From Vibrio cholerae ATCC 14035 (lineage in GTDB: Bacteria > Pseudomonadota > Gammaproteobacteria > Enterobacterales > Vibrionaceae), in NCBI RefSeq assembly GCF_000621645.1, contig NZ_KK211324.1, forward strand, positions 1 to 27,577: a stretch of DNA of 27,577 nucleotides, given 5' to 3'. This document shows positions 22,683-27,577 of the stretch, one piece after another; position 1 is the stretch's first letter, and each line of letters begins with the position of its first letter. Below the pieces are notes generated by a model. The model was not told where the DNA came from. It ran no database searches and was given only the letters and a program-made list of their open reading frames with translations. A program made the position numbers and the translations under genes.

Positions 22683-23651
22683 TTGAAAATCGGAAATCAT
22701 CAACTTAAGAACAATCTGATCGTCGCCCCGATGGCGGGTGTCACCGACAGACCCTTTCGAGAGTTGTGTTTACGCTACGGGGCAGGAATGGCGGTCAGTG
22801 AAATGATGTCATGCAATCCTGCGTTGTGGAAAACGGCCAAATCGCAAAACCGCATGGTACATGAAGGCGAATCGGGCATTCGCTCAGTACAAATTGCGGG
22901 CAGCGATCCACAGCTGATGGCCGAAGCAGCGCAGTTCAGCGTTGAAAACGGTGCGCAAATCATCGATATCAACATGGGCTGCCCAGCCAAAAAAGTAAAT
23001 AAAAAGCTCGCGGGCTCTGCACTGCTGCGCTATCCGGATGTGATTGAAGACATCTTGAAAGCGGTAGTGAATGCAGTGAATGTGCCAGTCACACTCAAAA
23101 CCCGAACGGGTTGGGATACAGACAATAAAAACTGTCTCTCGATTGCTCAATTAGCCGAAGACTGCGGCATACAAGCACTGGCTCTCCATGGACGAACTCG
23201 TGCCTGCATGTACAAAGGTGAGGCGGAATACGACAGCATTAAAGCGGTCAAAGCGGCTGTGAGCATTCCGGTTATCGCTAACGGTGATATCGATAGCCCG
23301 GAGAAAGCACGCTACGTACTGGAGTACACCGGTGCAGACGCTTTAATGATTGGCCGTCCTGCCCAAGGACGACCATGGATTTTTCAGGAAATCCAACACT
23401 TTTTGGAACACGGCACCACAATGCCAGAACTTCCAATTTCGGAAGTGAAAGACATCATGCTTGGTCATGTAACCGCACTCCATCAGTTTTATGGAGAGTA
23501 CTTAGGCCCACGAATTGCGCGCAAACACGTGAGTTGGTACCTGCAAGAGCATGAACAAGCGAGTGCGTTTCGCCGTACCTTCAACGCCATTGAGACTGCT
23601 GACCAGCAACTCGATGCGCTCGAAGGGTATTTTGATAACGTTGCATCATAA
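22683..23651 (+). CDS. dusB: tRNA-dihydrouridine synthase B
   Basis: Collinear with E. coli DusB (IGxxQLxNxLIxAPMAGxTDRPFR ... [10 protein letters not shown] ... FDN). By alignment the start is the TTG at 22683 ([11 protein letters not shown]). The track start is the TTG at 22656. The start codon remains uncertain. Confidence 0.88.
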
Positions 23652-23674
23652 TTAAGAGAAGAGCTAGACCGAAT

Positions 23675-23971
23675 ATGTTCGAACAAAATCTGACTTCAGA
23701 AGCTTTAACCGTTACTACCGTAACTTCACAAGACCAAATCACGCAAAAGCCACTGCGTGACTCTGTTAAAGCGTCTCTTAAAAACTACTTGGCTCAACTG
23801 AATGGCCAAGAAGTGACTGAACTGTATGAATTAGTTCTAGCTGAAGTTGAACAACCACTTCTGGACACCATCATGCAATACACTCGCGGTAACCAAACTC
23901 GCGCAGCAACTATGATGGGTATCAACCGCGGCACTCTTCGTAAGAAACTGAAAAAATACGGCATGAACTAA
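23675..23971 (+). CDS. fis: DNA-binding protein Fis
   Basis: 98 aa: MFEQ...LRDSVK...[29 protein letters not shown], essentially the canonical Fis sequence. Confidence 0.98.
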
Positions 23972-23997
23972 TTAACATTAGTTAACTAGCTGATTTT

Positions 23998-24033
23998 AAA
24001 GTCGCTTTTCATTAATGGAGAGCGACTTTTTTG
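23998..24033 (+). terminator. Rho-independent terminator of fis
   Basis: Arms aaagtcgct (23998-24006) / agcgacttt (24021-24029), followed by a T-run to about 24032. Confidence 0.75.
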
Positions 24034-24035
24034 TT

Positions 24036-24059
24036 ATATGTACCCCCATATGTACCCCA
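24036..24059. repeat. Tandem 12-bp direct duplication at the core/island junction
   Basis: atatgtaccccc (24036-24047) is followed immediately by atatgtacccca (24048-24059). It begins 3 nt after the fis terminator T-run. Confidence 0.7.
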
Positions 24060-24200
24060 GACGTTTTCCTAATTCCCCCTCACCATCTAAATCTTACTGA
24101 CAGACTTTTAAAGACCCATCGTTTAGAGCCTTTACCAACAAGCCTCCATTTTGTTCAAGCAAAAGCCGTCAAAGCACAATGATTAAGGTTAACCAAGTGA

Positions 24201-24320
24201 TCTAAGAGGATTCTAGAGGATTCTAGAGGATTCTAGAGGATTCTAGAGGATTCTAGAGGATTCTAGAGGATTCTAGAGGATTCTAGAGGATTCTAGAGGA
24301 TTCTAGAGGATTCTAGAGTA
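24201..24320. repeat. 10-bp tandem repeat array: 11 perfect units plus degenerate flanking copies
   Basis: The unit agaggattct repeats perfectly from 24205 to 24314, which is 11 units. A variant copy lies on each side (tctaagagga at 24201-24210 and ttctagagta at 24311-24320). Each unit recreates the palindrome tctaga. Confidence 0.95.
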
Positions 24321-24469
24321 AATTAGGATAAATAATCATACAAAACAACAACTAACAAAAACAAATCCATAAATAATTTATTCAATTTCGGCATCCAGAT
24401 CACTGAAATAACCATTACTAATGGGAACAATTAGCTACTTTGAAAACCAAATGAACACGGGTACTGTCT

Positions 24470-25105
24470 ATGTCATCACTAATTGAACGAGCAATGGTGA
24501 TTATCTCAGGATTAGGAAGTCGAGAACCTCTTCGTCTAGTTGAGGATCTTTTTTTAAGACCTAACACATGGAAGCGTTCTTGTAATCCTGTAGAGCGATT
24601 TGTCATTGAGACTGCTGATGCACTGGGCTACAGCCATGATGCTAGCTCGACAAACAAACTGTGCATCTCCTTAGATAGGTCCGACAGGTTTCACCAAATG
24701 TGCATGTTCAACCAATCATTAGATGAAGCGACCAAGAAAGAGCTGACGATTTTGATCAAGCAAAAATGGGCGGGTATCACTTCAAAGAAGCCACATACAA
24801 ACCGGGCTCTCGACGTCATCATTCCTATAGCAAAAGCGTTTTTTAGTCACCAGAGCAGTGTCATTGTCGCTATCGGTTTATTTGTAGAGCGTTTAGTTGA
24901 GCATGTATCTAAAATGCACCCCACTCCCCCTGCCCTAAAACCATTACTCCAACGTTCCGAGAGAAAATTAGCGGAAGGTTTGAGAGCGGTACTTGAAGGA
25001 GGGAGCTATTGTGAATCAAAAAGTGGCAAGGGCGCAGAAATCCTAGTTGATCAGTTTATTGCCTCAAAACTTATCGAATTTTACCCTGAACCCGCTTTGG
25101 CATAG
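24470..25105 (+). CDS. Hypothetical protein (orphan, no family recognised)
   Basis: 211-aa ORF and the only long ORF in this stretch. The SD is weak, and an alternative ATG at 24494 is possible. It is co-oriented with the downstream alpA-like genes. Confidence 0.5.
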   Translation: MSSLIERAMVIISGLGSREPLRLVEDLFLRPNTWKRSCNPVERFVIETADALGYSHDASSTNKLCISLDRSDRFHQMCMFNQSLDEATKKELTILIKQKWAGITSKKPHTNRALDVIIPIAKAFFSHQSSVIVAIGLFVERLVEHVSKMHPTPPALKPLLQRSERKLAEGLRAVLEGGSYCESKSGKGAEILVDQFIASKLIEFYPEPALA

Positions 25106-25171
25106 CGATCGACATGAATAATTAAAACCTCTATGGCAGCCTATATACGAACCTCAACCACGGAGCACAGT

Positions 25172-25405
25172 ATGACTGCCATAGAAAAACTCACCCAACC
25201 TAACCAACTCTCTTGTGACCGATTTGTCCGAGAAGCAGAACGTCGCCGTATCACCGCCATTTCACGCAGCCAAGCTTGGAAGCTTGAAAAAGAAGGTCGC
25301 TTCCCTCCTCGTATCAAGTTAGGTAGCCGTTCCGTCGTTTGGCGACTTTCTGACCTTACACAGTGGCTAGACAAACAAGCAGGCCAATATTCGGAAGAAG
25401 CATAA
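25172..25405 (+). CDS. alpA: AlpA-family (prophage CP4-57 regulatory / excisionase-like) HTH protein
   Basis: ISRSQAWKLEKEGRFPPRIKLGSRSVVWRLSDLTQWL matches the AlpA signature (xSRSTxYRLxxxGxFPxPxKLGxRxVxWxxSExxxWL). The ATG at 25172 is preceded by ggag with a 6-nt spacer. The track start at 25133 is less likely. Confidence 0.8.
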   Translation: MTAIEKLTQPNQLSCDRFVREAERRRITAISRSQAWKLEKEGRFPPRIKLGSRSVVWRLSDLTQWLDKQAGQYSEEA

Positions 25406-25626
25406 TGACCTTCGATCTCTCTCGTCAGTGTAATAAGGCGGCAATGCCACTACACATCATCAGCAAAAAAGAGCTCGCCAATCTGCTGCATGTCAATGAG
25501 CGCACAATCCATCGCATGGTCAAGGATAAGCGCTTACCTGAGCCTATGCGTACCGTAGGTGGCAATAATGGTGGATGGCTTCTAACTACAATCCTAGAGT
25601 GGCAAAAAAGTCAAAAAGGGCATTAA
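25405..25626 (+). CDS. Second small HTH protein (excisionase/MerR-like HTH_17 type)
   Basis: ISKKELANLLHVNERTIHRMVKDKRLPEP...WLLTTILEWQ resembles Xis-type winged HTH proteins. Its ATG overlaps the alpA stop (TAATG at 25403-25407), and ggaag lies 8 nt upstream. Confidence 0.65.
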   Translation: MTFDLSRQCNKAAMPLHIISKKELANLLHVNERTIHRMVKDKRLPEPMRTVGGNNGGWLLTTILEWQKSQKGH

Positions 25627-25638
25627 TCGCCCTTTTTT
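25613..25638 (+). terminator. Rho-independent terminator after the HTH gene pair
   Basis: Arms aaaaagggc (25613-25621) / gcccttttt (25629-25637) with a T6 run. It overlaps the stop codon. Confidence 0.7.
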
Positions 25639-25778
25639 ATATACTGATGTCCGCTTTAGGCCGGAATTGTCTATAAAAACACGAAGTTTCTAGATAAGCA
25701 CAAATGAGAACAACCCAGTAAAAACGCGGCACTGCGTGAAATACTGGCGACAAAGTTCGCAGGTATAAAGATATTGTT

Positions 25779-26429
25779 ATGAGAGCTCGCATCCTTCTTC
25801 ACCCGACTAAATCCAAACTAGCGCTTTACCGTCACGGTGATCAGGTGTATCAAATTTTCCACCGCGCAACAGGTGTTGATCAAAACATCCTCCAATCCAG
25901 TTTTGATTTGGCAAAAAGTTGGAGAAATCACTATTCCAAGTTTTGCGGGGTCATCCTACAACTTCACCAGAATCAGCCCAGTGACAACAACCAGCAATTA
26001 AGCACATTCCTCATCAAGCTGATGCAAGCTTTGCAGAAACATTACAACACGCCCAATATCGGTTACTTCTGGATTCGTGAACAGAGTGGCAGGGATAAAC
26101 AACACTATCATCTGGCCGTATTTATCAGTGGTCATTGCTGCCAGCACAGCGGCACCATAGATACACTCGCCAACACACTTTGGAAGCAGCAAGACGAGCG
26201 CAATTTTAGTTATCAGGTCAAAAATAGAATCTACAAAGTTAATCGCTATGGCTTCGATAAGGAATGGCCATCCCTGCTAACTCGACTAAGCTACTTCGCC
26301 AAAAACGACACCAAAAGCCGCAGCCCTTCGCGAAATAGCTACGGTCGCAGCCAGCTTTTGAAAACGACAACTCAAGCAAAAACACTGAAAAATGCAAAAG
26401 TGATCAGTTCCAGTGATCACTTTTACTGA
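25779..26429 (+). CDS. YagK/YfjJ (inovirus Gp2) family protein, candidate replication initiator
   Basis: The segment IGYFWIREQSGRDKQHYHLAVFISG matches the family hallmark remembered from E. coli YfjJ/YagK (YxWVREQ....HYHLLLLLNG). The SD is weak, so the start is uncertain. Confidence 0.65.
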   Translation: MRARILLHPTKSKLALYRHGDQVYQIFHRATGVDQNILQSSFDLAKSWRNHYSKFCGVILQLHQNQPSDNNQQLSTFLIKLMQALQKHYNTPNIGYFWIREQSGRDKQHYHLAVFISGHCCQHSGTIDTLANTLWKQQDERNFSYQVKNRIYKVNRYGFDKEWPSLLTRLSYFAKNDTKSRSPSRNSYGRSQLLKTTTQAKTLKNAKVISSSDHFY

Positions 26430-26537
26430 TCATCTGAACTGATCACTTTTAAACTGCGCAAATTTTACTGATCACTTCTGAAAATCATATTACAAACAAT
26501 CACATAAACAAAAACCATCACTACTGGTCACTTTTTT
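26401..26537. repeat. Iteron-like direct repeats with a TGATCA core (candidate replication origin)
   Basis: TGATCA occurs at 26401, 26414, 26427 and 26440, exactly 13 bp apart, and again at 26469. A degenerate tggtca lies at 26525. The longer consensus is (t/a)actgatcactt(t/c)t. An A/T-rich stretch follows (26481-26520). The cluster straddles the stop codon of the Gp2-family ORF. Confidence 0.7.
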
Positions 26538-26613
26538 CGTCACCGTTTCAAAATTAAAAAAGTACACATCGTGAGAGTGTATTTGCGCATTTTTAGGGGA
26601 TTTTGAGCCCAAA

Positions 26614-27309
26614 TTAGCGGCTTGAATAAGTAAACCTCATCAATTCAAAAGCAAGCAGAGCATGACCATTGGGGCAGAGATACTTCCGCTCTACACGCCC
26701 ACAAAGGTTGACCGATTTCTCTTGAAGTTGACCCGTTTCAATTTCGTCATGGCAGACAGAACAGCGTACAAGGCCGATATTGTGTGCAATTAAATCATCC
26801 GCCAAGTAAGAAAACCTCGACCACATTGGCGGCACATCGACAGGCTCTTGCAGCGACTCATCACGGCTTTGCACCCAAGCCAACAGTTTCCCCTCATCAT
26901 TGCCTTGTAGATGAGGCGATTGACGCAGTCGCTCAATTAACTGCTTCTCAAGCAAAGCGCTAGGAAAAATAAACTCACCGTAGCTGTTGTCACAAATCCC
27001 CTCTGGTTTAGGTTTATAGCTAACATAAGCGCCACAGGTTTTCAGTTCTCGATAGGCACGTTCCATTTCTCGGTAATAATCGGCACGATTAGCCGTAGGT
27101 TTCAGCCAATCAGCCCAATTAGGCCTGCCCTGTTTTACCCAACCAAACAGCATTAAAGGCCAGAACAACACCATAAACACAAAATGAAACCAGATGTCGC
27201 CTTTGTCCCACTGCCAATCATGCTTATCCAAGTGCCTGACCATCACCCACAGCAAGCCGCACGCCACCAGCGCAGCCCCAAGCAAATAACCCTGTAGTAG
27301 AATCATCAT
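26614..27309 (-). CDS. Hypothetical membrane-anchored protein with a C-terminal zinc-ribbon-like motif
   Basis: 231-aa ORF with a good SD (gagggg). It has two N-terminal hydrophobic helices (LLGAALVACGLLWVMV, IWFHFVFMVLFWPLMLFGWV). The C-terminus has CSVCHDE...(x)...LCGRVERKYLCPNGH (CxxC ... C ... CxxxH). No family recognised. Confidence 0.6.
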   Translation of the reverse strand: MMILLQGYLLGAALVACGLLWVMVRHLDKHDWQWDKGDIWFHFVFMVLFWPLMLFGWVKQGRPNWADWLKPTANRADYYREMERAYRELKTCGAYVSYKPKPEGICDNSYGEFIFPSALLEKQLIERLRQSPHLQGNDEGKLLAWVQSRDESLQEPVDVPPMWSRFSYLADDLIAHNIGLVRCSVCHDEIETGQLQEKSVNLCGRVERKYLCPNGHALLAFELMRFTYSSR

Positions 27310-27421
27310 ATCGCCCCTCTATTCAGTAAATTCAACATTTAATTCGCAATAACTTTCCTAACTTATCCGTCATTTCCATATCCGGCTCACTGATAACTCA
27401 AAGATTAAGCCTATATAAAAC

Positions 27422-27577
27422 TCTGTAATCCAACCTGCGTGGGGAAGACTTAACGTCACCGTTATGGAATTCGATTAAAGAGGAAACACACCCCACCTGC
27501 GTGGGGAAGACTTTGTATTCTTTGCCGCTTGCATGGATGTTGTAGAAACACCCCCACCTGCGTGGGGAAGACAATCG
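27422..27577 (-). CRISPR. Type I-E CRISPR array, trailer end, continuing beyond the window
   Basis: Repeat 3 (27545-27572) is gaaacacccccacctgcgtggggaagac. Repeat 2 (27483-27511) has one extra base. Repeat 1 (27422-27449) is degenerate and keeps only acctgcgtggggaagac. The two complete spacers are 33 bp each (27450-27482 and 27512-27544). The reverse complement GTCTTCCCCACGCAGGTGGGGGTGTTTC has the same stem-loop-plus-handle layout as the E. coli I-E repeat. The array is therefore read on the - strand, and the degenerate copy is the leader-distal terminal repeat. Confidence 0.9.

Follow-up and report, generated by a model that had tools for sequence, protein, structure and literature searches.

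The locus beside fis is the integration site of the PICMIs, a family of minimalist phage satellites of Vibrionaceae that is defined by an integrase gene (int), alpA and a DUF3987/DUF5906 primase gene beside fis, with int placed distal to fis and often overlapped by a further gene (PMC10803314). In these satellites AlpA is both necessary and sufficient for excision, the direct repeat given in Supplementary Data 3 of that study reads AATACGGCATGAACTAA or AATACGGCATGAA, and no genome has been found to hold more than one PICMI (PMC10803314); their copying has been characterised as rolling-circle-like. The same neighbourhood holds GI-24, an island of 17 kb between VC0289 and VC0290 (fis) of Vibrio cholerae, for which an integrase, att sites, and excision with circularisation (attB and attP, by nested PCR) have been described (PMC6360697, 2019), and whose position next to fis has since been restated (PMC12409358). 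Here we analyse 27,577 nucleotides of V. cholerae ATCC 14035 (contig NZ_KK211324.1, positions 1 to 27,577; this whole stretch is called the window), of which positions 23972-27577 are, on sequence identity, the fis-proximal (attL) arm of GI-24, a ~17 kb integrative island of classical V. cholerae.

The island as such is already known, as are its integrase, att sites and excision. In the GI-24 publications that we consulted, neither AlpA nor an excisionase, replication or Fic comes up for this island, neither classical strains nor GI-24 appear in the published list of PICMIs (PMC10803314), and we found no publication that names GI-24 together with PICMI. What seems not yet to be in print is that GI-24 occupies the attachment site of the PICMIs, and that its AlpA/nickase backbone is common to islands of 3-6 kb. 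Overall, we consider it probable that GI-24 belongs, as a cargo-rich member, to a family of islands that insert at the 3' end of fis, use the PICMI att site, and carry an HUH nickase instead of a primase; this is the best explanation that we can offer for the locus as a whole.

Results

Identity and borders of the island

Over 11,799 aligned columns (11.8 kb), the window and the O395 chromosome (CP001235.1) show 0 mismatches and one 10-bp gap, and this sole difference is a single unit of a variable-number tandem repeat (VNTR), present in 11 copies here and 12 in O395. The proteins of the window occur verbatim in CP001235.1, and exact look-ups of two of them, the product of open reading frame (ORF) 231 and a predicted nickase, led to V. 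cholerae chromosomes, O395 among them, with the same gene order. Given this identity over 11.8 kb, the element is GI-24, the island that an initial annotation of the window had named. The insertion lies between homologues of VC0289, a gntR/LacI-type gene, and of VC0290 (fis), and El Tor strains are without it; a type I-E array is accompanied by cas3-cse1-cse2-cas6-cas7-cas5-cas1-cas2; and integrase P0242 and a repeat of 16-17 bp are found at the island ends. From fis outward the order is the attL core, the island's own fis terminator, two arm repeats, ORF211, alpA and a second Xis-like helix-turn-helix (HTH) gene; then an HUH nickase gene with iterons, ORF231, the CRISPR array, cas2 to cas3 and a SoFic-like Fic gene; and finally, at the distal end, a gene for a P4-type integrase, more arm repeats and the attR core. 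All the features that the annotation had read from the letters (two AlpA/Xis-like HTH genes, a Gp2/YfjJ protein, iterons and the trailer of a type I-E array) are present by profile matches and repeat counts.

The conserved host block that had been described as aroQ-accBC-prmA-dusB-fis was verified, as acs-aroQ-accB-accC-prmA-dusB-fis, from Pfam labels on identical loci, and an identical Fis protein is encoded in every Vibrio locus that we fetched. Beyond fis the DNA is indeed richer in A and T, with G+C at 43.4% (23972-27577) against 49.7% (1-23971). The annotation had set the start of the island after the fis terminator, at 24034, and here it erred by 62 bp: El Tor-type sequence departs from the window right at the fis stop codon and carries a different hairpin terminator, and the native El Tor fis terminator is found 17 kb off, past attR, in strains with GI-24. 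Island DNA therefore begins at 23972, and the hairpin at 23998-24029 is owned by the island. The empty site whose existence the annotation had proposed to check is present in El Tor-type genomes, where the distance from fis to a LacI-type gene is 138 bp.

The direct repeat, 16-17 bp long, comprises the terminal bases of fis. Only one copy of this core lies inside the window; the second stands just outside the integrase end (loci L035-L040) and is followed by native El Tor fis-downstream sequence. A contig of 9.7 kb (L029), found by way of the Cse1 cluster representative, likewise shows the integrase and the att site. The far-end loci L035-L040 were reached through the O395 integrase P0242 (ABQ22067/ACP08342, members of its cluster), and in the orientation of the window they read cas3, the Fic gene, the integrase gene, ...TTTAGTTT[A/C]TACGGCATGAACTAA and then the exact El Tor fis-downstream sequence, with the LacI-type VC0289 homologue past attR. 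Extension to the right thus recovered the cas operon, an integrase and the direct repeat, and the island turned out neither to lack an empty counterpart nor to lack repeats and an integrase. The integrase (PF13356 and PF00589) is encoded at the far end, ~17 kb from fis, and faces fis; the annotation was right that none sits at the fis-proximal end but wrong to call this atypical, a fis-distal int being the normal PICMI layout. That the fis locus is the PICMI integration site, as the annotation stated, is borne out to the base: the GI-24 core is, letter for letter, the direct repeat of PICMI115 and other PICMIs (PMC10803314 data). This identical core is the sole pointer to a possible homology between the integrases of GI-24 and the PICMIs; look-ups of the integrases P0144 and P0229 led to restriction-modification islands or a truncated contig.

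Both ends of the island also carry short repeats. The motif ATGTACCCC has 2 matches in the whole window against 0.11 expected, and both fall in the pair of ATATGTACCCCC repeats next to the terminator; at the far end of the island a second ATGTACCCC pair, with an inverted copy, adjoins the start codon of int, and the repeats are confined to the two outer ends. The layout of core, terminator and repeats recurs in a Vibrio natriegens island (L042) and in a 6-kb island (L046), and in the latter both arms bear TCTACCCC at equal spacing; its integrase and that of O395 share 62% identity. Both arms carry such repeats, which differ where the integrase differs, and we infer that ATATGTACCCCC and ATGTACCCC are putative arm-type sites at which the integrase would bind.

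An AlpA/nickase backbone

The product of alpA matches phrog_2790 ('excisionase and transcriptional regulator') at 1e-17 and is 30% identical to the AlpA of PICMI115 (E=4e-8). The gene that follows encodes a small protein that matches HTH_17 (2.4e-5), Xis_Gifsy_1 (1.5e-5) and TIGR01764 'excise' (1.3e-4), all under the curated cut-offs; it is 29% identical to PICMI115 AlpA (E=2e-7) and is listed among the structural matches to that protein in the data file of the PICMI study (PMC10803314). The mandatory PICMI primase (PF13148 / PF19263) finds no match in any ORF of the window, and the remaining GI-24 consists of cas genes, the Fic gene and int.

In the primase's place stand an HUH nickase gene and its iterons. 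The motifs QHYH (H109, Y110, H111) and RLSY..K (Y172, K175) of the nickase are invariant in 13 relatives, down to 24% identity. All 13 match PF23343, one matches PF01719 weakly, and none matches a relaxase family profile. The iteron CTGATCACTT, counted with at most one mismatch, has 7 matches in the 27.6 kb window against 1.56 expected (7 is reached in 0 of 100 shuffles), and five of these copies are packed within 26398-26533 (136 bp), a cluster that also holds a 24-nt inverted repeat of 88% complementarity. The nickase homologues of L042 (protein 80% identical) and of a second V. natriegens locus, L043 (64%), are followed by the same motif cluster, while the intervening DNA differs. The HUH motifs, and the conservation of the cluster beside the gene, fit a predicted initiator that would nick next to its own gene.

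A GATC (Dam) site occurs in every one of the five iteron copies except the distal one (26524), where the letters are GGTC, and a span of 70 bp in this region has five TGATCA sites. This pattern is known from methylation-controlled origins.

All five backbone genes are under purifying selection in the comparison of V. cholerae with V. natriegens. The ratio of nonsynonymous to synonymous substitution rates (dN/dS) is 0.20 for alpA, 0.13 for the second HTH gene, 0.12 for the nickase gene and 0.07 for ORF231; for ORF211 the corresponding proportions are pN 0.31 and pS 0.81.

Related islands and variants

The backbone recurs in a shared order: an ORF of ~200 aa, AlpA, a small HTH protein, a YfjJ-type nickase, cargo, and an integrase facing back. 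In V. natriegens (L042) the cargo is again a CRISPR-Cas system, and in L031-34 it is a type I restriction system. One relative is the outer unit of L031 (4501-7815; 3.3 kb), in which an integrase, orf134, a YfjJ-type nickase and AlpA lie between two fis cores as one of two islands in tandem. The complete 6.0 kb island of L046 (1-6118), likewise bounded by fis cores, carries a two-gene cargo of HAD/PRTase and DprA/SLOG-like proteins. In several runs from one sequencing project L046 assembles as a separate contig whose ends are the island borders, which may point to free circles or to a mixture of occupied and empty sites.

The block is not tied to fis. At another chromosomal site of V. natriegens (L043 7704-11542), a block of AlpA, HTH protein, nickase and ORF230 that is 64-68% identical to the window adjoins an integrase with only 25% identity; not far from it, this island also has a P4 cII-like gene. 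This pairing with an unrelated integrase at another site indicates that the AlpA-HTH-nickase block is portable.

Other loci retain parts of the island. L002 and L021 are without the DNA corresponding to window ~24110-26499 (ORF211 to the nickase gene) and keep ORF231; the junction has the iteron-like sequence CTGACAGACTTTT on its left and the iteron region on its right. In L021, moreover, a type I restriction-modification (RM) system and Abi_2 replace CRISPR-Cas, the Fic gene is truncated, and there is no integrase. L025 and L026 (10298-11650), both V. cholerae loci, have only the island-type fis terminator and the Fic gene between fis and the LacI-type gene, again with no integrase, and this looks like a remnant of an island at the fis site. 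Together these four loci look like decay products, and they also show exchange of cargo between conserved ends. A variant without an integrase has been described from V. albensis (PMC6360697).

Comparison with described systems

GI-24 shares with the PICMIs (PICMI115 of V. chagasii and its relatives) an insertion beside fis that is bounded by a short direct repeat, a tyrosine integrase and AlpA (PF05930/PF12728) in the same island, an int that is distal to fis and transcribed towards it, and defence cargo, and the Fic gene at int resembles the PICMI gene that overlaps the integrase gene ('iolg'). At the same time, GI-24 is not a PICMI, since it has no primase. It differs further in that alpA and the nickase gene are directed away from int; in that its cargo lies between nickase and int, whereas PICMI cargo lies between prim and fis; and in that its relatives occur in tandem (L031), whereas PICMIs are single in a genome. 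Its size is also out of range, ~17 kb from core to core against the ~5-8 kb of PICMIs in Vibrionaceae, although the relatives of 6.0 kb (L046) and 3.3 kb (L031) fit.

The cryptic P4-type islands CP4-57 and CP4-6 of Escherichia coli K-12 (IntA-AlpA-YfjI-YfjJ; YagK) resemble GI-24 in other respects, with a P4-type integrase that has an arm-binding N-terminal domain, AlpA, and a protein of the YagK/YfjJ family, the two E. coli proteins giving their name to the Pfam family that the window nickase matches. They differ in their attachment site and in the integrase gene adjoining alpA, an adjacency that they share with the GI-24 relative in L043. Excision of CP4-57 is triggered by AlpA. We know of no role for YfjJ or YagK, and a literature search on the function of these proteins and on plasmid pA22P3, which carries a relative of the nickase, returned nothing useful.

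Cargo and remaining features

The repeats of the array, GTCTTCCCCACGCAGGTGGGGGTGTTTC(Y) on the minus strand, are spaced 61-62 nt apart, and the array is of type I-E, a type marked by repeats of 28-29 nt, spacers of 32-33 nt and adjacent I-E cas genes; here the period is 61 nt, and Cse1, Cse2 and Cas3_HD lie nearby. Those in the window are the first three of 40 repeats in O395, to which they are identical, with cas2-cas1-cas5-cas7-cas6-cse2-cse1-cas3 beyond. The outermost repeat is degenerate and the cas genes lie past the opposite end of the array, so it is the trailer in which the window ends. A search with Cas3 among GTDB species genomes found two loci only, both outside Vibrio. The Fic gene matches the SoFic defence model of PADLOC (7e-43) and either adjoins the 3' end of the integrase gene or overlaps it (ATGA).

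ORF231 has no family match in Pfam, PHROGs, NCBIfam or PADLOC; its product is 45% identical to that of the gene adjoining the same module in L043, and it is retained both with other cargo (L021) and in variants without the module (L002). The last CRISPR repeat and ORF231 are on one strand, with ORF231 downstream across a gap of ~110 bp (27310-27420), so that read-through of the array transcript could reach it. ORF211 likewise finds no match in these four collections and has an orthologue of 211 aa and 47% identity at the same position in V. natriegens. Shorter forms (133-135 aa) in some strains reflect the choice of start by the gene caller, and a reading of them as frameshifts was dropped.

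Between the arm repeats and ORF211 lies the VNTR of AGAGGATTCT units, which has 3-14 copies in other V. cholerae loci and none in V. natriegens. An inverted pair of iteron-like half sites (24187-24203 and 24397-24413) flanks it. A scan of 23600-27577 against Rfam gave no match, and a promoter scan gave fewer sites than in shuffled sequences.

Table 1. Positions of the features of the island arm and its attachment site in the window, with one gene that lies beyond it
Feature	Position	Strand	Basis
fis, 98 aa, host gene; its 3' end is the attachment site	23675..23971	+	PF02954 HTH_8 2.1e-14
attL core, direct repeat AATACGGCATGAACTAA(T); final five fis codons plus stop	23955..23972	.	second copy beyond the integrase end
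Intrinsic terminator, island-borne, substitutes for the native fis terminator	23998..24035	+	hairpin 23998-24029 with 14-bp stem, then T run
Two direct ATATGTACCCCC repeats, proposed arm-type integrase binding sites (P' arm)	24036..24058	+	motif enrichment
10-bp tandem repeat AGAGGATTCT, 11.4 copies (VNTR)	24205..24318	.	Tandem Repeats Finder score 228, 100% matches
ORF211, conserved backbone gene	24470..25105	+	no family match; orthologue in V. natriegens
alpA, predicted recombination directionality factor (excision trigger)	25172..25405	+	PF05930 2.6e-19
Second Xis-like HTH gene, 73 aa; TAATG overlap with alpA	25405..25626	+	weak HTH/Xis profile matches
Hairpin with T runs, terminator-like, closing the alpA-HTH pair	25613..25637	.	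sequence reading and terminator scan
YagK/YfjJ (inovirus Gp2-type) HUH nickase, 216 aa	25779..26429	+	PF11726 (YagK_YfjJ_C) 4e-12; PF23343 (REP_ORF2-G2P) 1.7e-7
Iteron/inverted-repeat cluster CTGATCACTT, proposed nick or origin site	26396..26535	.	repeat counts
ORF231, protein with two transmembrane segments and conserved CxxC...CxxxH tail, backbone gene	26614..27309	-	homologue in L043
Trailer end of type I-E CRISPR array	27421..27577	-	repeats 27421-27449 (degenerate, last), 27483-27511, 27544-27572
Fic-domain gene, outside the window	L035 11242-12225; L037 11233-12225		PADLOC SoFic; coordinates are those of each locus

Discussion

We believe that the locus is best understood as an integrative island with two backbone ends and a replaceable middle. 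In this model the far-end integrase would recombine the 17-bp core, and AlpA, possibly together with the second HTH protein, would shift recombination to excision, as has been shown for the AlpA of PICMIs. The HUH protein would then nick the iteron/inverted-repeat cluster adjoining its own gene, and the nick would lead to rolling-circle copying of the excised circle, or to its processing for transfer. CRISPR-Cas and the Fic gene would be cargo, carried between the two ends.

Several observations weigh against this model. The parts that it gives to AlpA, the second HTH protein and the HUH protein in the excision and copying of GI-24 are predictions rather than experimental results, and the published excision of GI-24 was detectable solely by nested PCR (PMC6360697). 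The backbone also appears to be dispensable for retention of the island, since L002 and L021 persist without the module, and L021 and the V. albensis variant without an integrase. Then there is the nickase itself. It shares with rolling-circle HUH initiators (inovirus gpII/REP_ORF2-G2P and RepB types) the HUH and Y..K motifs, the PF23343 match and repeats beside the gene; unlike them, it has no relative of solved structure that we could find, its structure model reaches a pLDDT of 66, and a fold search with it returned generic ferredoxin-like folds only. Its relatives, moreover, co-occur with Rep_3/RepM on plasmids: the only plasmids with a relative, Psychrobacter pA22P3 and a metagenome contig of 3.9 kb, encode their own Rep_3/RepM initiator as well, and the HUH protein therefore need not be an initiator of replication; the annotation's 'replication module' is accordingly a candidate only. 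In L041 (pA22P3, 1647-2435) and L144 (1323-2075) the YfjJ-type gene adjoins the RepM/Rep_3 gene and is followed by two or three small ORFs; the 3.9 kb contig has a terminal overlap of 127 bp and is probably circular.

The alternative that survives best, and that we still think rather unlikely, is that the backbone is a fossil. On this account today the gap between fis and VC0289 is a defence-island hotspot, its contents exchanged when DNA taken up by natural transformation undergoes homologous recombination, with fis, ORF231, the Fic-int region and VC0289 serving as flanks. Box et al. are said to have transferred GI-24 to El Tor by natural transformation in 2016. Different cargo, either CRISPR-Cas or type I RM with Abi_2, does stand between the same ORF231 and Fic ends, variants without int or without the module exist (L021, L002, L025/L026 and V. 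albensis), and excision is very rare (PMC6360697), all of which speaks for a fossil backbone. Against it, purifying selection acts across species on backbone genes that are all intact, neither end of the island has lost its att core or arm repeats, and excision does occur (PMC6360697); and the swapping of cargo is in any case a route that is compatible with a working integrative island.

We regard as unlikely a second alternative, in which GI-24 is a true phage satellite, PICMI-like but with a nickase for a primase. A helper phage would induce alpA, the island would excise, and the circle would be copied by rolling circle and packaged into capsids of the helper, so that CRISPR-Cas would be carried to new hosts; PICMIs are induced and packaged by a virulent helper phage. 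Much of the comparison with the PICMIs speaks in its favour: an att core of 17 bp in common, an int that is likewise distal to fis and overlapped by a further gene, AlpA homologues, relatives of 3.3 and 6.0 kb that are of PICMI size, and the rolling-circle-like copying that the literature attributes to PICMIs. The integrase also has 401 relatives in IMG/VR, and among the best 80 of these (51-57% identical) AlpA is encoded beside int in 79 and the fis core is present in 43. One IMG/VR locus that we inspected resembles a cf-PICI and encodes an HK97 capsid and a prohead protease. Satellites of the cf-PICI type (L057, for example) share with GI-24 an integrase of 51-57% identity, an overlapping downstream gene and AlpA, but they have genes for a capsid, a protease and an AAA_25 replication protein, whereas GI-24 has no virion gene and a different nickase. 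Against the satellite reading, the mandatory PICMI primase is absent from an island that is two to three times the size of a PICMI, and the orientation of alpA and the nickase gene away from int is not that of PICMIs. The nickase family, for its part, has 0 matches in 50,697 phage records, and in IMG/VR (2.9 million contigs) there are no close relatives of the nickase and 4 distant matches. The junction expected for GI-24 reads ...TTTAGTTTMTACGGCATGAACTAATTAACATTAG..., and the attP junction sequence had no match in the viral or metagenome collections searched; no helper phage is known. We also think it quite unlikely that GI-24 and its relatives of 3-6 kb form a phage-inducible sister family of the PICMIs, one that would copy by means of the HUH nickase and in which GI-24 would ferry type I-E CRISPR-Cas between Vibrio species.

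Quite unlikely, too, is that GI-24 is an integrative mobilisable element, with the HUH protein as its relaxase and the inverted repeat at 26396-26450 as its origin of transfer (oriT), the circle being moved by a co-resident conjugative element. An inverted repeat beside a nick site is typical of an oriT. The plasmids with a YfjJ-type gene and their own Rep_3/RepM gene match the classic layout of Rep plus Mob, and the nickase is missing, or nearly so, from the viral collections; a search of plasmids with it gave one match. Against this, the profiles that the nickase family matches are those of Rep-type HUH proteins and of no relaxase family, and the island encodes neither a coupling protein nor any other mobilisation gene. 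MOB-suite calls pA22P3 non-mobilisable, a verdict that a new relaxase family would escape. Highly improbable, finally, is a composite in which a small, separate AlpA-nickase element or remnant sits between fis and an independent CRISPR-Cas island: L002 and L021 keep ORF231 and cargo without 24110-26499, the AlpA-HTH-nickase-ORF231 block stands beside an unrelated integrase elsewhere (25% identity, L043), and L031 holds genuine tandem islands, but the units of L031 are divided by a core, the same succession of fis-side module, cargo and distal int recurs in L042, L046 and L031-34, the arm repeats occur at the two outer ends only, and the tandem form of this reading was dropped when no att core was found between module and cargo.

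Pandemic-lineage V. cholerae owes its only native chromosomal CRISPR-Cas system to GI-24, whose movement has been understood only as rare excision. What is added here is the exact att core, which is the core of the PICMIs, together with an island-borne fis terminator, candidate arm repeats, and a nickase-type sister group of small islands at fis. With its requirement for a primase, the published PICMI search model overlooks such parallel islands, which occupy the same site and bear defence systems. In this context, the shared PICMI core, the backbone of AlpA, Xis-like protein and HUH nickase, and the relatives of 3-6 kb sharpen the vague notion of a 'mobilisable island' into specifics that can be tested.

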